Source: Trueperaceae bacterium
GTDB lineage: Bacteria > Deinococcota > Deinococci > Deinococcales > Trueperaceae
Assembly: GCA_034520945.1 (NCBI GenBank)
Contig: JAXHNB010000005.1
Location: forward strand, 768,001 to 832,000
Direction of reading: 5' to 3'
DNA length: 64,000 nt
Below the pieces are notes generated by a model. It made no database searches. It saw only the letters and a program-made list of their open reading frames with translations, and was not told the origin of the DNA. Positions 28,305 to 47,276 of this stretch are shown one piece after another (the stretch's first letter is position 1; each line of letters begins with the position of its first letter). A program made the position numbers and the translations under genes.

Positions 28305-28473
28305 ACCGGGGACTGTAGCACGGGCACGTGGTGCGCCAAGGCGCCGTGGACACGCGGTTTCGGGCGCAGGGACGTTCGTCTCTACGAGCCGCGGGGCGAC
28401 CTCGGACATCCTGATCCGGGAATCGCGCCTCGGACCGCAGCCGCGGCGTGCCACCACGACGGGAGCCTGCCGC

Positions 28474-29853
28474 ATGCCCGACACGGACGACCTGGCCACG
28501 CTGCTCGCGCGGCACGACAAGCCAGGGCCTCGCTACACCTCGTACCCCACCGCCACCCTGTTCCACGACGGCGTGGACGAGGCCGCCTACCAGCGGGCCC
28601 TCGCCGACGCCGCCGCCGTGGACGCGCCCCTGTCCCTGTACGTGCACCTGCCGTTCTGCGCCGAGCGGTGCCTGTACTGCGCCTGCAACGTCGTCATCAC
28701 CCAGCACCCCGAGGTCAGCGAGCCCTACCTCGAGCACCTGCGCCGCGAGATCGACCTCGTGGCGACGCACCTCGGCACGGCCCGTCCCGTGCGGCAGTTC
28801 CACTTCGGCGGCGGCACGCCCACCTACTACGCCCCCGCGCAGTTGGCCGAGTTGATGTCCTACCTGCGGGCCCGCTTCGCGTTCGAACCGGGGGCCGAGG
28901 TGGCGCTGGAGGCCGACCCGCGGGTGACCACCACCGAGCATTTGGAGGTCCTCGCCGACCACGGCTTCAACCGACTGTCGCTCGGGGTGCAGGACTTCGA
29001 CCCCCGCGTGCAGGAGGCCGTCCACCGCGTACAGGGCTTCCAGGACACCATGCGCCTGGTCGAGGCCGCCCGGCGCTACGGCTTCACCTCGGTCAACGTC
29101 GACCTGATCCACGGCCTGCCGTACCAGACGCCGAGCTCCTTCGCCCGGACGGTCGACCAGGTGCTGCGGATGGCCCCCGACCGGCTGGCGGTGTACTCCT
29201 TCGCGCACGTGCCGTGGATCGCGCCGCACCAGAAGCGCCTGCCCGAAGACGCCATCCCCCGCGGCGAGGAGAAGTACCGGCTGCTGGCCACGGCGCGCGA
29301 GCGCCTCACCGGCGCCGGTTACCTCGACGTCGGCATGGATCACTTCGCCCGGCCCGACGACGAGCTGGCCCAGGCGCAACGCGAGGGCCGCCTGTCGCGC
29401 AACTTCATGGGGTACACGCCGGTCCGCGCCGGCGACGTGATCGGCCTGGGCCTGTCCGCCATCGGCGAGGTGCAGGGCCGCTTCGTGCAGAACCACCGCA
29501 AGCTGAACCGCTACCAAGATGCGGTGGCGGCGGGCCGGCTGCCCACCGCGCGCGGCTACGAGTTGAGCGACGACGACCGCGTGCGGCAGCACCTGATCCG
29601 CGAGTGGATGTGCAACCTGCACCTTCCCGTCCGCGACCTCGAAGCGCGCTTCGGCATCGCGTTCGACGCCTACTTCGCCGAAGAACGAGGCGAGATCGAC
29701 GCCCTGGTGCGGGACGGGTTCCTGGAGCCGAACGAGGACGGCTTCCGCGCCGGCCCGCTGGGACGCATGTTCCTCCGCAACGTCGCCATGGTGTTCGACC
29801 GGCACCTGCGCGAGCGCACGCCGGACCGGCCGACCTTCTCACGAACGGTGTGA
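28474..29853 (+). CDS. hemN: oxygen-independent coproporphyrinogen III oxidase
   Basis: GPRYTSYP, YVHLPFCAERCLYCAC, GGGTPT, RLSLGVQD, GMDHF and RNFMGY motifs. Confidence 0.95.
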   Translation: MPDTDDLATLLARHDKPGPRYTSYPTATLFHDGVDEAAYQRALADAAAVDAPLSLYVHLPFCAERCLYCACNVVITQHPEVSEPYLEHLRREIDLVATHLGTARPVRQFHFGGGTPTYYAPAQLAELMSYLRARFAFEPGAEVALEADPRVTTTEHLEVLADHGFNRLSLGVQDFDPRVQEAVHRVQGFQDTMRLVEAARRYGFTSVNVDLIHGLPYQTPSSFARTVDQVLRMAPDRLAVYSFAHVPWIAPHQKRLPEDAIPRGEEKYRLLATARERLTGAGYLDVGMDHFARPDDELAQAQREGRLSRNFMGYTPVRAGDVIGLGLSAIGEVQGRFVQNHRKLNRYQDAVAAGRLPTARGYELSDDDRVRQHLIREWMCNLHLPVRDLEARFGIAFDAYFAEERGEIDALVRDGFLEPNEDGFRAGPLGRMFLRNVAMVFDRHLRERTPDRPTFSRTV

Positions 29854-29945
29854 GTGGGGGGCGCGCCGGTCGGTCCTGCGTTCGCGGCATGTTGGCAGCC
29901 GCGGCGCTGGCCGGGTATACTTCCCGCCGGCTTCGGCCCGCGTGT

Positions 29946-30021
<76 letters not shown>

Positions 30022-30592: not shown

Positions 30593-32746
30593 ATGAAGCG
30601 GTTAGGACTGGCAGTACTTTTCGTTCTCTTGGTCGCCGCGTGCGGCACGCAACCGCAGGTGGCGTCATGGGTCGGAAGTGTGACCTTGGACCCCGCCGAC
30701 GGCGCGGTGGACGTTCCCGTCGACACCGACATCACGGCCACCTACGACTTCAGTCAAGGCGACATCGCGGACGCCGACATCGTGTTCACGGTGACGGCGG
30801 CCGAGTCCGAGACGGCCGGCGTGCACACCGCACAGGTCGCGGGCCAAACCACCGTAAACGTCGCGGCCGGCCAGGTAATCTTCGAGCCGGACGACGACCT
30901 GGCGCACGGCACCACCTACCAGGTGACCGCGCAAGGGAGCGTGACCCTCGACAACGGTGACACGCCCGAGGGCGAAGCGACCTGGAGCTTCACGACCGTC
31001 GAAGCAGAGCCCGAACCCGAGGAGCCCGCGTTCGACGTCACCCCCCCAGGGGACGACCCGATCGTGATCGACGACGCCTCGGGCGAAGGCTCGCCGGACG
31101 TTCAGGTCGACAACGCGTCCGATGGGCCAATCGACGTGAGCATCGTGTGCACGGACGAAGGTGGCGCCGACGCGGCCGGCTTCAGCGTGCAGCCGTCCAC
31201 CGTCGACCCCGACAGCGCGGCCCAAGTGACCGTCGTCGCGGGCGCCGCCGTTTCCGACGGGACCTACACCTGCGTCATCACTGTCAGCGACGGCGAGCAG
31301 AGCGTCGAGACCACCGTCGAGGTCGTCGTGAATCGCGACGATGACGGGCCGAGCGACGTCGACGGCTTGGGTCTACCCGACGATGGGTCGATCACCTTCA
31401 CCATCGACGACAGCGACCAGGGCTCGGCGGATTTCTCCGTCACGCGCGTGGATGGCTTCGGTGGGAACGTCACGCTGGTGGGCGAATGCTCCCAGGGCGG
31501 CCTGCAGGTCGAGAGCGTGACGAGCCCCCTGGTCGATCCCGCGACGGACGCCACGTTGGTCGTGAGCCTGGTAACCCCCGCCAACGGATTGGCGAACGGG
31601 ACGTACCCAGGGGCGTGCGAGATCACGGCCAGTGCGGACGGCTCGACCAATGCGACGACCACGGTGGACGTGGTGGTGGATCGCACCATCGACGGCTTCC
31701 AGCTTCCGGGCAGCGACGGAACCGGCATCACCGTCACCGTCGACGACGGCAACGATCCGGCCACGCATGCCTTGAGCATCGCGCGCGCGAACAACTTCGA
31801 TGAGGAAGTGACGCTGAGCGTAGAATGCTCCGCGACCGGCGACGGCAGCGACATCGCGGCCTCGCTTCAGCCCGAGGCCACGACCGAAGACAGCAGCACC
31901 TTGACCGTCGACGCACCGGGCGTGCCGAACGGCACCTACACGGACGCATGCACCGTGACGGGGACCGCACAAGGCTCGACCGACTCCAGTACGAACGTGA
32001 CGGTCATCGTGGACCGGACGGTGGAGGGGATCGACTTCTCACCGACGGATGCCAGCCTGACGTTCACGATCGAAGGCACGGCGGATTCGAACACGCAGGC
32101 GGTCGAGATCGCCCGCGCGAACGGCTTCGACGGTGCAGTGAACATCACCGGCACCTGCGCGAGCGAATCGGGCATCACCTTCGATCCGGTCACGATCGCC
32201 GCAGGCGACACCACGGCGAGCGTCACGGTGCACGCGGACGAAGGCGTCAGCAACGACAGTCAAGGCTACGACTGCACGCTCACCGGCTCCGGCGACGGCT
32301 CCGAGGACGCGACGCTCGACGCCACCGTCGAAGTCGACCGCTTCGTGAATACACGCATCGTGCCGTTGAGCACGACCTGCGAAAGCGGCACCGCCACCGG
32401 CGAGAGCTGCGAGGTCCTGGTCCACCTCATCAACTTCGAGGACGACTTCTACGGGTTCGAGTTCGGATTCTCCTTCGATCAGGGCAACTACGCGATCAAC
32501 GAGAACGCATCCGGCCTTGGGTCGTTGACGTCGCACTTCGACCTCGACGCCGTGTCGAGCACGACCGCTGCGGGCGTCGAGCCCCTGAGTGGCGATGCTG
32601 CGACCGGCAGCGGCGAGATCTACGTGCTCGTCGTCGAGCGCGTCGCCACGGGTAGCGACACGCTGAGCACCTCGGACGGTGAAGTGGTGCGCGACGACGG
32701 CTCTGCGATGTCGGGCCTGCCCGGCGCGGAGATCACGCTCCCATGA
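30593..32746 (+). CDS. acidic lipoprotein: Ig-like (SbsA/Big_5-type) domain, four Cys-paired Ig-like repeats, C-terminal cohesin-like domain
   Basis: Lipobox VAAC; PADGAVDVPVDT...DLAHGTTYQVT...WSFTT; repeats with RxxGFxGxVTL..C...GTY..C; C-terminus YGFEFGFSFD...GSGEIYVLVV...GAEIT resembles a cohesin (by eye). Confidence 0.75.
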   Translation: MKRLGLAVLFVLLVAACGTQPQVASWVGSVTLDPADGAVDVPVDTDITATYDFSQGDIADADIVFTVTAAESETAGVHTAQVAGQTTVNVAAGQVIFEPDDDLAHGTTYQVTAQGSVTLDNGDTPEGEATWSFTTVEAEPEPEEPAFDVTPPGDDPIVIDDASGEGSPDVQVDNASDGPIDVSIVCTDEGGADAAGFSVQPSTVDPDSAAQVTVVAGAAVSDGTYTCVITVSDGEQSVETTVEVVVNRDDDGPSDVDGLGLPDDGSITFTIDDSDQGSADFSVTRVDGFGGNVTLVGECSQGGLQVESVTSPLVDPATDATLVVSLVTPANGLANGTYPGACEITASADGSTNATTTVDVVVDRTIDGFQLPGSDGTGITVTVDDGNDPATHALSIARANNFDEEVTLSVECSATGDGSDIAASLQPEATTEDSSTLTVDAPGVPNGTYTDACTVTGTAQGSTDSSTNVTVIVDRTVEGIDFSPTDASLTFTIEGTADSNTQAVEIARANGFDGAVNITGTCASESGITFDPVTIAAGDTTASVTVHADEGVSNDSQGYDCTLTGSGDGSEDATLDATVEVDRFVNTRIVPLSTTCESGTATGESCEVLVHLINFEDDFYGFEFGFSFDQGNYAINENASGLGSLTSHFDLDAVSSTTAAGVEPLSGDAATGSGEIYVLVVERVATGSDTLSTSDGEVVRDDGSAMSGLPGAEITLP

Positions 32747-32813
32747 GCGCCGCAACCGGCACGTGCCCTGGCCAGCATCCATCCGAGTCCCGTACGTTCG
32801 AGCAGGAGTCCTG

Positions 32814-35800
32814 ATGCGACGTTTCGCTGTGTTTTCGGTTTTGTCCGTCTTGTTTGGGCTGTTCGTGTTGGCCGCTTGTGGTCGGTCGGCGGAGCCTGAG
32901 CGTTTTACGACTGTCACGCTTTCCGTGCCGGCTGAGGCTACGGCTGTTGAAGCGACGTTGGAGTTTGATCCGGAGGCGTTGGAGTACCTGGAGCTTTCGA
33001 GTGGTGGTATCGCTTCCGATGCCGTTGGTTCGGGGCGGGTGCGTCTTGCCGCGATCGATCCGAACCACGAGGGGGGCGCGTTGGTCACGGCTACGTTCCG
33101 CACCCGGCAATCGGGTGCCACGCCGAGTATCGCCAGCCTACAGGCGTACGATCCTGCGGGGGCTCCTCGCGATGGTGCTGTGAGTAGCATCGAGCGTGGT
33201 GTCGCTTCTCCGCCTGAGGGTGACGGTGACGCTGCTGGTGGTCTTGCGGCGCAGGCGATTCCTGCGGATCCTGTGCTTGAAGCGTCTTACGCGGACTACG
33301 TTCTTGGCAATGTCGATCAGACCGGCAGTGTCAGCATTGCGGATGCGAGTGCCGTTCTGAACATCGCGACGGCGACGGCTCCGTTCGATAGTCCTTCCGA
33401 TGTCCAGCTGTACCTTGCGGACTTGAACGGGAATCATGCGATTACGGTCAGTGATGCGGTTCTTGTTCTTCAGAACGTGGTTGACGATGATCTGGATGCG
33501 GATCTGGTGGTGAAACCGGATACGTTGGAGCTTGGCACCAACGATTCCGGTCTGATTCTGGTGGGGAATGCTGGGAATCAGCCGCTGCCTGAGTTGACGA
33601 TCACTTCGCCTGTGGGCATCACGTTGACGCCTCTGGATCCCGGCGTAAAGGACCACACGGCTGCGTATCAGGTGGAGCAAACCCAGGACGCCGAGAGTGG
33701 TCCCGTCCACATCGATGCCGGCACCGCCGGAAGCGCGACCGTCGGGGTGTACGTCGACGGCGAAGAACCCGTCCTCTTCGACGCGATCCGCATCAATGCG
33801 GGCGGCGACGGCGTACGACCGACATCGCTCGGCCACGACGTGGATCGCCGACGACTACTTCGACCGGACGGCAGTACGACCGTACAGCCGACCCGGGCCG
33901 AGGACGTCGACGGTACGACCGTCGACGACATCGCTGTACCAGAGCGAACGCTACGGGCGAGACCGACCTCGTTCGGGTACGGCATTCCCGTTCCCGATGG
34001 GCGAGTACGACCGTGGTGCTGCACTTCGCGGAGATCTACCACGGCGTTGTCCGCTGGCACCGAACAGCGGCGAGCGTGAAGGCGATCGCGTGTTCAGTAC
34101 GCGACGATCGAAGGCGACACGGTCCTCGACGGACTACGACGTGATGCGCGGATGACCGACGTCGGCCACCGCCGATCCAGAAGAGTCTTCGGCCCGTATC
34201 CAGGTGACCGACGGCACGCTGGACATCGAGTTCACCGCCTCCGTGGACAACGCCAAGATCTCCGCGATCGAGGTGGTGACGGCCGAACCGCAGGCTGGCA
34301 CAGCTCGACGCGTTGCCGATGCGCGCCGTCGACTTCGGTCGACCGTCGATCGACACGGCAACAGCGCCGCACATGACCGTGACCCTCGCCAACCTCGGTG
34401 AGCGCGGGCGATCCGACCATCGACGGTCAGACAGACGTCGAGCGTTCCGGATGGCGACTTCTGGCGACCGACGCTCAGCGGCGCGCTTCGAGCATCGACG
34501 CCCGGGCACCTCGACCATCGTTCGAGGTGACGTTCGCGCCCGCCGTCGACGGGCGTCCAGCGCCGGAAAGCCTCGACATCGTGCACGACAGCGGCTCCGA
34601 CGACCTCGTCTGCCGATTGCCGTTTCATTGGCGGGCGAAGGGCTTCGATCCCGCAGCGGCACCGGTCTCGTTCGGCTCGAGTGGCCTCGCGGGGGTCAGC
34701 CTCAGCAATCCGACGTCGTTGGACCTCGGCCCCGACGGCCGCCTGTACGTGTCCCAGCAGAACGGGATACTGCAACGCCTACACCGTCGGTGCGCGACGG
34801 CGCCAACGACTACTCAGGTGACCGACACCGAGACGATCGCGCTCGTTCAGGACATCCCCAACCACAACGATGACGACGGCAGCGCGAACGCAGGCGAGAA
34901 CGACCGGCAGGTCACGGGCCTGCTACGTGGCCGGCACGGCGCTCAATCCGGTGCTGTACGTGTCGTCGAGCGACCCGCGGATCGGTGCCGGAGGCGGACC
35001 CGACTCAGCGGCTCGGACACCAACTCGGGCGTGATCTCGCAGCTGACCTGCAACCTGCGCATCCGGAACTGACGCCTGTGACTGGACCACGTCGAACTTG
35101 GTCCGCGGTCTGCCGCGCTCCGAGGAGAACCACGCCTCGAACGGCCTCGACAGTACGACGCGAGTGAACAACGTGCTCTACCTCGACGCAGGGCGGGCAT
35201 ACCAACGCCGGTTCGCCGTCAGCAACAACTTCGCGCTCACCACCGGAGTACGCGCTGTCGGCCGCGATGCTGTCGGTCGACCTCGATGCGCTCGAAGCCA
35301 TGGAGGTCAAGTCGGACGCGTCGGGAGACTACGTGTACGACCTGCCGACGTTGGACGACCCGACACGCACCAACGAATCCGACGGCAGCGATCCCGGCGA
35401 TCCCTTCGGCGGCAACGACGGCCTCAACCAGGCCCGCATCGTGTTCGGCGGTCCCGTGCAGGTGTACTCGCCCGGGTACCGCAACGCCTACGACCTCGTC
35501 ATCACGCTGGTCTGGGCGAGCTCTACATCGTACGACAACGGCGCCAACGACGGCTGGGGCGGCTACCCCGAATACGAGGAGAGCTACGACTGCACCAACG
35601 CCTTCCTTTCCGGCGAACCTGGCTCGAGCAGTCCCGGTCCCGATCCCGCGGCCTACCTGGCGACGTGGAGCTGCACGACGGGAACTACGGCCACGGCGGC
35701 TGAGCGACGAGCAACCCGACAGCGAGGTCAACAACGAGGACAACCTGCACCACGTCCCCGCCCAGGGCTTCTACGGCGGTCACCCGACTCCGGTGCGCGC

Positions 35801-37323
35801 CAACCCCGGCGGCGCTGGCCTCTACGTCGACGGAGACTTCTACGACTCCTGGCCACGCCAACCTGCCCGACGACTGGCCGCCCGTTCCCGTCGATCGGGA
35901 CGTACAACGCCGTGGAGTGCGACTTCCGCAACCCCGAGACGTGGACGACGGCGCGCTCGCGATGGTCGGTTCGTCGACCAACGGCATCACCGAGTACCCC
36001 GCCAGCAACTTCGGCGGCGCCATGACAGGGCGACCTGCTGCTGTGCCAGCTACAGCGGCCGCGATCTACCGGGCCACAGCTCAACGCCTCCGGCGACGAC
36101 GTCACCGACGACGCCCGAGCAGCTCTTCTCCGGCTTCGGCTCGACGCCCGCTTGACGTGACCGCGCTGCCCGACGACAGCCGCTCTTCGCCGGCACCGTG
36201 TGGGCCGCCACCTACGGCTCCAACGACATCATGGTGTTCGAACCGGTCGACTACAGCGGCAACGGCTCGGGCGGCGGAGGGGGCGGCAGTCTCGATCGGA
36301 AGCTGCAGTACGGTCGCCGCCGAGAACCCCTCGGCGACGAGGACGGCGACGGCTACACCAACGCCGACGAGATCGACAATGGCACCAACCCGTGCTCGGC
36401 GGCGTCGACCCCGCCCGACTTCGACGGCGACGGCGTGTCCGACCTCCTCGATCCGAAGACGACGACAACGACAGTCATGCCCGACGCCACCGATCGCGTT
36501 CGCGCTCGGATGCCGACAACGGCACCACCACTGTCGCTTCCGGTCGAGTACGACCTGTTCTGGAATGACGATCCCGGCATCGGCTTCGGCGGCCTCGGCT
36601 TCACCGGTCTGATGACCAACGGGACAGCGATTACCTCGACGCTGTTCGATCCCGACGACGACCTGCAGCCTGGGCGGCACGTCCGGACTGCATGACCGAT
36701 CCAGTCGGTCGGCAGCCGGGCGACGCACACGATGACGAGGATGACGACAACACTGCAGGTCAACGCGCTGCAGTTCGGCATCGACGTCGACGACGGACAT
36801 CGATCCGGCCGAGGTTCACCATCGAGGTCCAGATCGACGCTCCTTCAACGGCGATGCAGACCCGGCAACTTCGCAGTCGTTCAGGGCTTCTACATCGGGC
36901 ACTGGCGACGCAGGACAACTACCTGAAGGTCGTCGTCAGACGACGGAGGCGACGGCGACGGCGGCATCGAAGTCGGTCCTCGAGGACCGGCGGTTCAGCC
37001 CTGTCGACTTGGCACGCGGTACCGACATCGACGGGCGTCCTGAGTTGTCGGAAGCTAGCTCGGTCCAGCTGTTCCTGGAGGTCGACCCGATCCGAGCGGC
37101 ACTCACGGCGCAGCCGAAGATACGCCGATCGATGGCGGTACGGTGAACAACGTCGGCACCGACAGCGCCGTTGGACGATCGCCCGCCAGCTGGCTCGACG
37201 CAAGCGACGACCATGGGCCTGGCAGTCGGCGTGATCGCCACCTCCACTCGGTGACGCCGCCGAGTTCGCCGCAACGTGGGAGTACATCTACATCCACGAG
37301 ACGTCGACGTCGACTAGCCCTGA
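32814..37323 (+). CDS. large lipoprotein: cohesin-like, dockerin, malectin, ASH-like Ig, sugar-dehydrogenase-like beta-propeller, TSP3-like Ca repeats, C-terminal beta domain (many apparent frameshifts after about 33800; end approximate)
   Basis: AGGAG SD and lipobox LAAC; dockerin duplex [33 protein letters not shown]...VLHFAEIY...[70 protein letters not shown], read across alternating frames. Confidence 0.6.
33243..33810 (+). repeat. copy 1 of the duplicated dockerin-linker cassette (looser similarity extends over about 32814-34290)
   Basis: Near-identical to 37864-38427; differences are mostly at third codon positions. Confidence 0.9.
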
Positions 37324-37402
37324 ACGATCGTGCTCGATGGGCCTGGGCGCAGCATGCGCTGCGCCTACGGGACCCACCGTACACTGCTAAGGAGTTGACC
37401 TG

Positions 37403-40400
37403 ATGACGACGTTCTCCCTGTTTCGGTCTCGTACCGTCTGGTTTGAGTTCATTCGTGTTGGTCGCTTGTGGTCGGTCTCCCGCGCCGGAATCGTTTCACG
37501 ACAGTCACGCGTTGTCGGTACCGGCTGAGTGCCGACGGCGGTTGAGGCGACCCTGGAGTTCGATCGTGGAGGCGCTGGAGTATCGTGGAGCTGTCGAGTG
37601 GTCGGTATGGCTGTCCGAGGCAGTAGCGTCCTCGCCAGGACGTGTGCGTGTTGGCGGCGATCGCGCCGAGTCACGCCGGGGGCGAGCTGGTCAACGGTGT
37701 ACGTTCCGGGCGCTGGCAATGCGAAGGCGTCACCGCGCAGTATCGGCAGCGTGCGTGCGTTCGACGGTGCAGGCGTGCGTGCTCGGAAGGCGCCGTGAAG
37801 CGGCGTTCGATCACGGTGTCGCTGCGCCGCGCTGAGGGCGCCGGATTGGACGCTGCTGGTGATCTCGCGGCGCAGGCGATTCCCGCCGATCCTGACGTTG
37901 GATGCTTCGTATGCGAACTACGTTCTTGGTGATGTTGATCAGAGTGGCAGTGTCAGCATTGCGGATGCGAGTGCGGTGTTGAACATCGCGACGGCGACGG
38001 CTCCGTTCGATAGTCCTTCCGATGTCCAGCTGTACCTTGCGGACTTGAATGGGAATCGTGCGATTACCGTCAGTGATGCGGTGCTTGTGCTTCAGAACGT
38101 GGTTGACGATGATCTGGATGCGGATTTGGTGGTGAAGCCTGATACGTTGGAGCTTGGCACCAACGATTCGGGTCTGATTCTTGTGGGGAATGCCGGTCGA
38201 TCAGCCGCTGCCTGACTTGACGATCACTTCGCCTGTGGGCATCACGTTGACGCCTCTGGGTCGCGGCGTCGAGGATCACACGGCTGCCTATCAGGTGGAG
38301 CAATCCCAGGACGCCGAGAGCGGTCCCGTGCACATCGATGCCGGCACCGCGGGAAGCGCCTCGGTCGCGTTGTTCGTCGACGACGTGCCCGTCTTCGATC
38401 CGATCCGCATAAATGCGGGCGGAGATGCTCACACCGACGTCGAACGAAAACGACTGGATCGCTGACGACTAGCTACGACGATGAACGCCAATACGACCGC
38501 GTGGCCGCCCGACGGCCCGAAGGACGTCTGACGATCGACAGGTACCGTTGACAACTTCCTGTATCAAACCGAGCGGTTACGGGAGGACTTCTCCTACGCC
38601 GATACCCGTTCCCAATGGCGAGTACGACGTGGTGCTTGCACTTCGCGGAGATCTACCAGTGAATCGTCGGAGGATGAGATCCGAGCGACGACGAGGCTGA
38701 AGGTGCGCGCGTGTTCAGTACCGCCATGGTCGAAGGTGAGCACGGTGCCGTCGAGGACTTCGACCTGTACGCCGGATGTCGGCGCGGATCACGCGCCGTC
38801 CATGAAGGAAACCTTCAGGCCCGCAGTCGACGTTACAGACGGTACGCTCGACATCGACTTCAGCTTCTACCATCGCGAATAACGCCAAGATTTCCGCCAT
38901 CGAGGTGCTGACGGCCGAACCGCAACCCGATCACCTTGGCGCCAGCCCTGGCTCGATCGACTTTGGCCAACAAGAGACCAGCAGCACCACCCAACGAACC
39001 GTCACGCTCACCAACCTCGGCGATACCGGCGACCCCACCATCACGATCGACAGCGTCAGCGCCGACAGCGACTACGACGCCACGCTTGCACGGCGCGGCC
39101 ACCCTCGATCCCGGCGACAGCACCACCGTCGACGTCAGCTTCACGCCCGCCGCCGTCCGGTGCACAGCGCCGGCACGCCTGACCGTCGAACCACAGCGGC
39201 ACCAACGACCCCCTCGAACTCTCCCTCAGTGGCGAAGGGATCGAACCGGCCGCGTTGGTGGGCGAGACCTCGCTCGTCATCACCGAGGAAAGCTCGGACA
39301 TCGAGGCGAGCACCTACAACGGCGGTTCGTTCCAGATCACCAACGTCGGGGACAAGAACATTGCTTCGGCGTCGCTCGATCTGGGTACGACCGTGATGCC
39401 CGACATGGTGTACGACCCAGAAGGAACCGCCGGAGACGATACGGGCAAGGTCTTCACGGCGGACAGCGGCGGCTCAGCGACCGGGCTGGTCGGGGGAAGC
39501 CTGTCCGTTCCGCACGACGGGGACCCCGACGACGGCTACGAGGTGTTGACCATCACGTTCGACGACTTCGAGCCGGGTGAGACGTTCACGTTCTCGGTCG
39601 ACAACGATCCCACCAGCATCAAGGGCGCGACGATCGGCTCGCAGGCCGCCGGGCCGGTGTCGGGACTCGAACTGACGGGGGCGACCTTCACGGTCCAATA
39701 CGCCGATGAAACGGCGCACACGAACCAGGTGTTCGGCGACGGCAGCGTCGGCGGGTCCCAGTCCGTGGCGAACGAGGGCGTGCCAGCCGCGCCCACGATC
39801 GACGCGCAGGGCGTCACCATCCAAGCGACCACGTTCTCGTCCGAGCACACGGCGGCCGCGGTGACGGACAGCAGCCCGACCATCGTGGTCGACGCGCCCG
39901 CAGGGGAGAACATCACCCTCCTGCAGATCGAGGGTGAGCTCGCACTCGATAACGTTCCCGATTCAGATGGGACCCCCGGCTACGACATCGAGGACTTCGA
40001 AGCCAACAAGGCCGTGAACGTCATCTACCACGAGGCCACCGTCGGCTCTGGCGGCACGGTCGACGTGCCGGTCACGCTGACTTCGTCGACCGACGTCGGC
40101 GGGTACAATTACTTCGTGGCCGCCCGTGAGGACGAAGATGGTGCCACGAGCCTCACCTCGAACGTGGTGGTCCTGCAGCTCGTGGAATCGCTCGAACCAC
40201 AGGCGCTCTACCGGGTGAACGCGGGCGGTAAGGAACTCAAGCCCCACGACCCGGTCTGGACGAAGGATACGAGCCTGAACCCGTCGACCTACGTGAACGT
40301 CCCGGAAAGTGGTAACAAGACGTACTCGACGGCCGACACGATTGGCCTGCACGAGTCGGTTCCGGGGGGTACCCCCATGGCGTTGTTCCAGACGGAACGC

Positions 40401-40736
40401 TGGGATCCCTCGAGCGACCCTGATCCGGAGATCGAAATGACGTGGAGTTTCGACCTGGCGTCCGGGGTGGAGTACGAAGTGCGGTTGTACCTGGCCGAGA
40501 TCTACCTGGACGACAAAAACCATGACGCAGAGGGTCCACGCGTGTTCGATGTGGAGGTGGAGGGGTCGGTCCCCGCCGTGTTCGACAGCATCAACCTGTT
40601 CGAGTCGTACGGTCATGACGTGGGTGTCATGCTCTCGACGACGGTGACGCTTGCCGATGACTACCTCGACATCACCTTCCTGCACGGCCAAGAAAACCCC
40701 AACGTGAAGGGCATCGAGATCGTCCGTGTTCCCTGA
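37403..40736 (+). CDS. large lipoprotein: cohesin-like, dockerin, malectin, ASH-like Ig, acidic beta domain, second malectin-like domain (many apparent frameshifts before about 39200)
   Basis: AAGGAG SD, ATG at 37403 and lipobox LVAC; same dockerin duplex; malectin ending [10 protein letters not shown]; clean 493-aa terminal ORF with YRVNAGG...LFQTERW...VRLYLAEIY...RVFDVEVEG...NPNVKGIEI. Confidence 0.62.
37864..38427 (+). repeat. copy 2 of the duplicated dockerin-linker cassette (looser similarity extends over about 37403-38925)
   Basis: Near-identical to 33243-33810. Confidence 0.9.
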
Positions 40737-47058: not shown

Positions 47059-47135
47059 GGCGATGTAGCTCAGCTGGTTAGAGCGCACGACTCATAATCG
47101 TGAGGTCCGGGGTTCAAGTCCCCGCATCGCTACCA
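47059..47135 (+). tRNA. tRNA with CAT anticodon (probably elongator Met; Ile2 not excluded)
   Basis: Acceptor GGCGATG/CATCGCT, anticodon arm CACGA-CTCATAA-TCGTG, TTCAAGT T-loop, CCA end; lacks initiator features. Confidence 0.93.
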
Positions 47136-47189
47136 CACGGCGCAGGGTGCACGGGCCCTGCGCCACGTTCGTGCCATGGCACCGGGCAT

Positions 47190-47276
47190 TGGTGCCGGGA
47201 ACGGGACTCGAACCCGTACGCCCTTGCGGGCAGCGGATTTTAAGTCCGCAGCGTCTACCGATTCCGCCATCCCGGC
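47190..47276 (-). tRNA. tRNA-Leu(TAA)
   Basis: Acceptor GCCGGGA/TCCCGGC, anticodon arm GCGGA-CTTAAAA-TCCGC, long variable arm, CCA end; 87 nt. Confidence 0.96.

Follow-up and report, generated by a model that had tools for sequence, protein, structure and literature searches.

A 64,000-nt stretch of DNA from a Trueperaceae bacterium (phylum Deinococcota; assembly GCA_034520945.1, contig JAXHNB010000005.1, positions 768,001 to 832,000), here called the window, contains three genes that probably belong to a modular, calcium-dependent, non-cellulosomal cohesin-dockerin system for tethering or displaying proteins at the Deinococcota envelope. Gene 1 is predicted to encode a stalk that ends in a cohesin (CohA); genes 2 and 3 are predicted to encode cargo proteins with a second type of cohesin (CohB), a dockerin and an immunoglobulin (Ig)-like module (X), and the dockerin-X unit of the cargo probably binds CohA in trans. 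This reading draws on the folds of the domains, the order of the genes, the co-occurrence of the modules and the diversity of the cargo, from which lipidation, binding, choice of partner, location and cargo activity are predicted. The genes lie downstream of a tRNA-Trp gene in one orientation, and all features placed below are on the + strand. As the original prediction, made from the DNA letters of the window, had claimed, all three genes carry a lipobox: LLVAAC in gene 1, FVLAAC in gene 2 and, recoverable only across a frameshift, FVLVAC in gene 3. These were identified by reading the sequence, such that lipidation is predicted.

A predicted stalk with a terminal cohesin

Gene 1 (30593..32746) is intact and encodes a protein of 717 aa with lipobox Cys17; it has the appearance of a stalk with a lipid anchor at one end and a cohesin at the other. 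The first of its five Ig-like domains is a Big_5 domain (30683..30997; Pfam PF13205, E 1.9e-10). Four tandem repeats follow (31028..32344), of ~105-110 aa each and each with a pair of cysteines; they resemble one another in pairwise BLASTP comparisons (27-37% identity, E 1e-5 to 1e-19), and their Ig-like fold was read by eye. The 133-aa CohA domain (32345..32743) is predicted by AlphaFold (AF2; pLDDT 95.0, pTM 0.88) to form a nine-stranded jelly-roll beta-sandwich that can be superposed on solved cohesins. The top ten Foldseek matches of the model are all cohesins (E 1e-7), and the first 18 rows of a VIA search against 48,161 chains are cohesin entries (Z 14.8-11.1), led by 2vo8 (Z 14.8, root-mean-square deviation (rmsd) 2.2 Å, 122 of 133 residues aligned); pilin and adhesin domains come behind the cohesins in this list, with Z scores of at most 10. 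A CohA profile built from 22 relatives has 2xdh as its best PDB sequence match (E 0.001), and two thiolase chains outrank the next cohesin. The Pfam Cohesin family (PF00963) matches neither the window domains nor anything in the whole genome at E<=0.1; our assignment rests on family profiles and folds. Thus, the stalk of five Ig-like domains with a cohesin-like end of ~135 aa at 32345-32743 has been borne out; the suggested check by profiles and structures identified a cohesin rather than a generic Ig domain with the fold and the family profiles, and failed with Pfam Cohesin. We also considered Thermus TTHA1873 (7wrk) as a member, given a fold match to CohA with Z 10.8, but rejected it, since a CohA domain of family f5 has no PDB sequence match at E<=10.

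A shared N-terminal tag on the cargo

Gene 2 (32814..37323, 3' end approximate; lipobox Cys22) and its paralog, gene 3 (37403..40736), share a repeated 5' region (92% nucleotide identity over 296 nt and 90% over 186 nt). An alignment of 24 N-terminal regions has a fixed order of lipobox, beta domain of ~100 aa (CohB), variable linker, short helix, dockerin and Ig domain (X). CohB of gene 2 (32898..33200) directly follows the lipid-anchored cysteine. The best PDB matches of its profile are the cohesin of Clostridium perfringens NagJ (E 3.8e-5) and 2xdh (E 0.0075); cohesins are also matched in Foldseek and in VIA (2vo8, Z 8.4, rmsd 2.4, 94 residues aligned, for CohB within a three-domain model rather than folded alone). 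Comparison of the CohA and CohB profiles gave only weak similarity (probability 9%, E 0.0036), and we therefore treat the two as separate types. The motifs quoted for this domain in the original prediction, one of 15 protein letters together with GRVRLAAI and GGALVTATF, are in frame in gene 2, whereas the gene 3 copy is frameshifted.

Both repeats of a duplicated, putatively calcium-binding loop and helix are visible in the dockerin, with Asp or Asn at loop positions 1, 3 and 12; Asp at position 12 of repeat 1 and at position 1 of repeat 2 is invariant in 24 of 24 sequences. The gene 2 copy (33267..33500) follows a short conserved helix, and its model superposes on 2ccl_B (VIA Z 8.8, rmsd 1.6 Å over 62 residues); the gene 3 copy (37892..38120) has the 92% identity to it given above. 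The profile of the dockerin module matches solved dockerins down to E 1.2e-10. Pfam Dockerin_1 (PF00404) matches 14 of the 24 module members at E<=1. Duplicated dockerins had been placed at 33297-33482 and 37919-38104, where the repeats are indeed found; the proposed check with the Dockerin_1 model recovered the gene 3 copy (25.1 bits, with a cut-off of 22.9) and fell short for the gene 2 copy (13.7 bits).

The X module (33501..33761) follows the dockerin in the alignment and in domain maps; it is Ig-like, has a GNxGN motif, and is best matched in VIA by the S-layer Ig domains of SbsC (Z 10). The linker of gene 2 (33201..33263) is probably flexible, with low pLDDT at model residues 111-130, and contains an L-x-x-Q motif, LAAQ, at 33243-33254. 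A model of the whole tag, from CohB to X, has pLDDT 92.5 and pTM 0.89; the high pTM despite the low-confidence linker implies a predicted arrangement in which CohB keeps one position against dockerin-X. Conservation within the tag peaks in the dockerin and X, not in CohB. The coevolution signal in 112 module sequences (effective number 91) had too much noise for a CohB-dockerin interface to be identified. Two relatives of the window genome in the same family, G023 and G024, each have tandem tags that are 98% identical in DNA over 918-920 nt and are attached to differing cargo, whereas tags of different genomes share only 36-39% protein identity. In this comparison of sequences, the tag appears to behave like a portable address label.

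The tag also has an odd codon bias. At fourfold sites of 32814-33650 and 37892-38197, T has a frequency of 0.30-0.39, C of 0.16-0.17 and A of near 0; T is only at 0.04-0.08 in gene 1 and at the end of gene 3. This bias ranks at the top of 9872 windows across the genome, where copies of tuf and a group II intron-like open reading frame (ORF; both named by eye) are also low in C, and it is not seen in 42 frames of relatives that carry the module. We rejected the idea of a bias common to all repeated genes, because 105 repeat and 3552 unique windows have near-equal means.

Cargo domains

The cargo of gene 2 (33770..37320; inner borders approximate) was mapped by tblastn to intact orthologs, and consists of a malectin domain, a choice-of-anchor-D/ASH Ig domain, a GSDH-like beta-propeller (~34650-36250), a TSP3-like calcium repeat (36336-36392; E 4.6e-5, below the cut-off) and a lectin-like end. 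Pfam and NCBIfam recognise malectin, choice-of-anchor-D and TSP3-like domains in the orthologs. The propeller assignment is a lead from an ortholog, with a Pfam GSDH match below the cut-off (E 0.017), an Atlas GSDH value of 0.94 with 184 shared features, and no PDB sequence match; pqqC is present in the window genome. Gene 3 encodes, after lipobox, CohB, dockerin and X, a malectin domain, an ASH domain, an uncharacterised conserved domain of 310 aa (39270..40199; 39% identity to the G023 ortholog, and no match in Pfam or Atlas) and a C-terminal malectin domain (40206..40682; Pfam PF11721, E 2.5e-11). The 310-aa domain and the malectin that follows it are at the end of gene 2 in the orthologs, but in gene 3 in the window.

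We scanned 50 of 59 cargo stretches, leaving out nine close or partial ones. Fourteen are SASA-family carbohydrate esterases, four are subtilases, three are fasciclin proteins and two have VWD domains, with one each of an amidase, an RCC1 propeller and a WD40 propeller; the rest have Ig-type or repeat domains only, or, for 14 stretches, no family at all. Glycoside hydrolase (GH) families are found in none of the 50 stretches (E<=1e-5) and in none of four intact orthologs, in keeping with the expectation that the locus is unlikely to serve cellulolysis. GH5, GH9 and CBM3 have no match in the window genome (3.47 Mb, 97% complete), and neither does GH48, for which the search matched nowhere and so had no positive control. 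This genome has one CohA and no CBM3 match, rather than a primary scaffoldin with several cohesins and a CBM3. The suggested role in glycan adhesion, sensing or oxidation fits this locus, but the cargo varies widely across relatives, suggesting that the conserved function is that of the docking module and not glycan handling.

Among the other cargo of relatives, two dockerin-tagged proteins (L154:8647-14037 in G170 and L040:6900-10205 in G022) have C-termini that look by eye like the nuclease tips of polymorphic toxins, and in L154 a 241-aa gene directly follows the toxin-like gene, as an immunity gene would; a family search of the two tips gave no match. At L033:13225-19998 and L039:1-5934, a dockerin gene is followed by a gene for a protein of at least ~2000 aa with many choice-of-anchor-D domains.

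Distribution and domain grammar in Deinococcota

Matches to the docking module occur in 58 of 364 genomes across Deinococcota; they are spread over four of six families and include Thermus. By family, these are 40 of the 127 genomes besides the window genome in its own family (f1), 5 of 125 in f2, 5 of 19 in f3, 0 of 23 in f4, 7 of 68 in f5, and 0 of 1 in f6; genome G090 is counted in these tallies but used for no other claim. A search of 1.84 billion representatives gave 86 module matches at E<=1e-30, and two of ten matching clusters that we looked up are named Thermus 'dockerin type I' by the National Center for Biotechnology Information (NCBI). The cohesins, in turn, are missed by Pfam, and routine annotation therefore does not reveal the pairing. 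A word-index search returned no homologs of greater length, although relatives exist. Scanning genome contigs with a single protein likewise yielded no relative. In the survey of Trueperaceae that had been proposed, the arrangement proved to be conserved: the same three-gene order is intact in G023 (756, 1932 and 1248 aa) and G024 (751, 1954 and 1256 aa), whose upstream genes match gene 1 in position and at 26% identity.

Within the 128 genomes of the window's family, the dockerin-X profile matches 41 (four of them with weak partial matches), the cargo tag as a single protein matches 30, and CohA is found in 16, all of which also have dockerin-X. For 34 of 38 CohA copies, a dockerin is encoded on the same strand at most 3 kb downstream; the other four are not so placed. 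Since 22 of the 38 copies built the profile and had been picked beside dockerin genes, the fairer count of adjacency is 12 of the other 16, and closely related genomes are not independent.

Domain maps of 60 loci include anchors with one to three tandem CohA domains, and adaptors in which the dockerin is N-terminal and CohA is C-terminal (in G031, f3 and f5). In four loci of G112, G116 and G117, a subtilase gene with a C-terminal dockerin-X, without CohB and with no lipobox by eye, immediately follows a CohA gene, and no cohesin other than CohA was detected beside the dockerin in these loci. One lipoprotein of 306 aa (L112) consists of CohB-dockerin-X without cargo. The system thus appears from these sequences to be wider than first noted, namely a phylum-level family with a grammar of anchor, adaptor and cargo and with two types of cohesin.

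Other arrangements were seen at single loci or groups of loci. At L107:8077-10497 (G102), an N-acetylmuramoyl-L-alanine amidase is fused to CohA directly before dockerin-X. In seven of seven f5 loci (L143-L149), the dockerin genes are followed by a further conserved lipoprotein gene (645-703 aa) whose Pro-rich linker ends in L-[RKG]-P-Q-A. A lipoprotein of 400-500 aa without a detected cohesin is often encoded next to esterase-cargo genes (L031, L035, L045, L046, L119-L122 and L125) and may be a different partner.

Frameshifts in genes 2 and 3

In the window, neither gene 2 nor gene 3 forms a single ORF: many frameshifts and stops lie between ~33850, after which gene 2 is frameshifted, and ~39250, up to which gene 3 is. 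Window DNA is present in salt-pan metagenome runs, and the best-matching run may represent the source sample. Contigs assembled from short reads of that habitat differ from gene 1 by 0-2 gaps, and from the window over 35381-37781 by 135 gaps and 94 other letters. Two alleles cover gene 2 at a depth of ~11 each, as compared with ~20-23 for gene 1, and two alleles at half depth can garble a consensus. Given the intact orthologs (1932 and 1954 aa for gene 2), and given that the short-read contigs disagree with the window in this region, errors in assembling a duplicated region that varies between strains are the most likely cause of the frameshifts. Some contigs pass from one paralog into the other (from 39208 to 34639 in three runs, and also from 34292 to 39001 and from 33956 to 38601), which hints at strains with exchanged 5' parts or cargo; such joints in repeats can also be artefacts.

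A proposed mechanism and its alternatives

We propose that gene 1 is exported as a lipoprotein and presents a single CohA at the tip of its five-Ig stalk, which would be ~20 nm long if extended. Genes 2 and 3 would be cargo with a portable N-terminal tag of lipobox, CohB, linker, dockerin and X. Dockerin-X would dock on a cohesin, most likely on CohA in trans, and CohB would be another possible site or a transient one; docking would cluster the cargo at the envelope or keep it away from the membrane. At this locus, the malectin/lectin domains and a probable pyrroloquinoline quinone (PQQ)-type propeller would point to a likely role in adhesion to glycans or oxidation of sugars; in relatives, this tag carries esterases, proteases or adhesin domains. 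We favour pairing of CohA with the dockerin chiefly because of the subtilase loci, where a dockerin protein without CohB or lipobox is encoded beside a CohA lipoprotein; this is the strongest argument. The linkage described above, with dockerin-X in every CohA genome and most CohA copies adjacent to it, is as expected for partners, and at the locus itself it is gene adjacency and domain grammar that point to binding. A predicted complex of CohA, dockerin-X and two calcium ions (median ipSAE 0.34 from values of 0.34, 0.26 and 0.36; controls 0.01, 0.00 and 0.17) counts neither way.

Several observations weigh against this proposal. In the window, the cargo is predicted to have a lipid anchor already, as well as a cohesin of its own; the tag model suggests that the dockerin may be occupied in cis by CohB; 25 of the 41 genomes with dockerin-X (drafts, and with the four weak partial matches among the 41) have no CohA match; and Pfam Cohesin at E<=1 matches only 3 of 22 CohA sequences (best 1.7e-5) and 2 of 24 module sequences. 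Because genes 2 and 3 encode anchored proteins with a second cohesin set against their own dockerin-Ig unit, a simple scaffoldin with free partners is insufficient. Hence the mini-scaffoldin of the original prediction stands in its cohesin and dockerin folds and its lipid-anchored stalk, and not in its partners, which are themselves lipoproteins with a second cohesin. The same features would fit a rather unlikely alternative, in which CohB and the dockerin are the working pair, such that the cargo closes on itself or links head-to-tail into oligomers or a membrane patch, and CohA stalks are optional. The pTM of the tag model, the cargo-free CohB-dockerin-X lipoprotein and the genomes without a CohA match, many of which have CohB-dockerin-X-esterase genes, are consistent with such a pair. 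However, CohB is ~30 aa shorter than typical cohesins and may pack on X rather than on the dockerin in the model, dockerin-X occurs beside CohA genes without CohB, and CohA is rarely found away from a dockerin (4 of 38 copies).

We consider it quite improbable that no complex forms at all, with cohesin folds serving as spacers in surface adhesins and the dockerin as a calcium-binding stabiliser of X. Cohesin-like sandwiches do also match pilin and adhesin domains (Z 8.5-10), sequence similarity to known cohesins is marginal, and conservation of the tag is concentrated outside CohB; yet the best 18 structural matches are all cohesin entries, and CohA, at a C-terminal tip and sometimes in tandem, stays by dockerin genes while stalks and cargo change. 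A minimal cellulosome-like complex for breakdown of plant polysaccharides would account for the cohesin, dockerin and malectin modules and for the SASA-family esterases in 14 of 50 cargo stretches, but it is made extremely improbable by the lack of glycoside hydrolases from those stretches and from the intact orthologs, and by the failure to find GH5, GH9, CBM3 or, in the search lacking a positive control, GH48 in the window genome. Lastly, genes 2 and 3 could be truly broken and the whole block a decaying imported island, as its many frameshifts and stops and its absence from this site in eight of ten congeners might indicate. This too is very improbable, given the intact orthologs, the two half-depth alleles of gene 2, and contigs that match gene 1 almost without gaps yet differ strongly from the window over 35381-37781.

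The favoured pairing of dockerin-X with CohA in trans could be reached by a hand-over pathway for surface assembly, which we regard as unlikely. CohB would hold the dockerin in cis until a protease cuts the linker at L-x-x-Q; dockerin-X and its cargo would then move to the cohesin of a stalk or adaptor, building chains of anchor, adaptor and cargo with swappable tips. Under this scheme there would be a reason for lipid-anchored proteins to have a dockerin at all. Cleavage is hypothetical, and the motif was derived from the very sequences in which it is counted here. Of 41 lipoprotein cargos, 31 have [LIV]-x-[PSTA]-Q in the linker region, as compared with a mean of 6.5 and a maximum of 14 in 300 shuffles, and a looser pattern in 44 of 69 as compared with 26.5. 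The motif is kept in lipoproteins without CohB (L114, L115 and L123), absent before the C-terminal dockerins of five of five subtilase cargos, and absent from many esterase cargos. The possibility that L-x-x-Q is a general lipoprotein signal in the window genome was rejected, since it is not enriched among predicted lipoproteins there (3 of 41, with 3.3 in shuffles).

The tRNA-Trp site

The left border of the inserted block is tRNA-Trp(CCA) (29946..30021; ARAGORN). In eight of ten congeners this tRNA gene is 100-220 bp from an iscA-like gene, and the other two loci end too early; it faces away from the iscA-like gene in seven of the eight and has the window's orientation in one, indicating that the site has also been rearranged. 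The flank labels iscA, hemN, nfeD and gcvPB are by-eye readings of translations. The G+C content (GC) of the block is 60-68%, in contrast to mostly 70-75% around it, and third-position GC is 0.85-0.87 in gene 1 and at the end of gene 3, in contrast to 0.91-0.98 in four of five flanking genes. The top matches of a housekeeping protein encoded in a flank are in Trueperaceae (71-81% identity for the named ones in the top six), followed by Calidithermus and Meiothermus. The islet at tRNA-Trp in the original prediction is thus an insertion relative to congeners, without an att-like second copy of the tRNA 3' end at the far border: the genome has only one copy of the final 14-25 nt of this tRNA. Judging by the ORF list and the mapping of orthologs, there is hardly space for an integrase gene, at which no search was aimed, and the block appears to be without signs of current mobility.

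Other features were noted nearby. A hemN-like gene, named by eye, lies between the nfeD-like gene and tRNA-Trp (28471-30021). tRNA-Met(CAT) and tRNA-Leu(TAA) are in opposite orientation at 47059-47276, and the same pair is near an iscA-like gene in L172. Outside the window, G000:C5:79087-82095 of the window genome has a tandem duplication of genes with FG-GAP-like repeats, identified by eye.

Comparison with known cohesin-dockerin systems

The role of cohesin-dockerin pairs outside cellulosomes has long been open, with most examples being isolated genes or from uncultured archaea; the work of Peer et al. in 2009 is reportedly the key survey of non-cellulosomal cohesin and dockerin modules. Deinococcota are an aerobic diderm phylum. 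Because named Thermus species in culture belong to the family described here, direct tests of binding, location and function are feasible. If binding is true, the system would be a route of non-covalent protein display on the diderm envelope, and designer scaffolds could draw on it for cohesin-dockerin pairs that are orthogonal and possibly thermostable. A literature search that covered few subscription journals and no supplements found no paper on a Deinococcota cohesin-dockerin display system; earlier mention is possible.

Archaeoglobus fulgidus has one gene with a cohesin and a dockerin, and an adjacent gene with a cohesin. Its non-cellulosomal pair (2XDH) is alike in that 2xdh is the best PDB match of the CohA profile and a top fold match (Z 13.7). 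It differs from the system described here, which consists of bacterial lipoproteins with an Ig stalk, two cohesin types, an X module, multi-cohesin anchors, adaptors and large, variable cargo. High-affinity binding of the A. fulgidus pair is given in the accessible part of PMC9705933, and the pair is also used in that of PMC12484212. The cohesins of C. perfringens GH84 and GH33 enzymes (2VO8, 2W1N, 2JH2 and 2O4E), which are likewise non-cellulosomal, are the best fold matches of CohA (Z 14.8 and 14.1) and the best sequence matches of CohB (E 4e-5). By contrast, they are parts of secreted glycoside hydrolases of a monoderm, whereas here the cohesins are on lipoprotein anchors or cargo N-termini and there is no hydrolase.

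Dockerin and cohesin proteins of anaerobic methanotrophic (ANME) archaea are, in the accessible part of PMC9012536, also non-cellulolytic and scaffoldin-like, with a dockerin and several cohesins, varied cargo, and a description from genomes only. Their cargo consists of ABC-transporter binding proteins and S-layer domains, and that part of the paper, which cites verified archaeal cohesin-dockerin binding, describes no CohB-dockerin-X lipoprotein tag. Cellulosomal scaffoldins (OlpA, OlpC and SdbA of C. thermocellum, ScaB and ScaC of A. cellulolyticus, and ScaC of R. flavefaciens, with type I-III dockerins) have the same two folds and the same grammar of anchor, adaptor and cargo. Their anchors are SLH domains or sortase-attached, according to the same part of PMC9012536, in contrast to the lipid anchor here. 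They differ also in that here there are no cellulases or CBM3, the dockerin is usually N-terminal and followed by an Ig module, and the cargo has its own anchor and cohesin. Judged from its domains, the Deinococcota system would work like the cellulosomal arrangement of anchor, adaptor and cargo, yet it does not qualify as a cellulosome, and would join the non-cellulosomal pairs that are already known.

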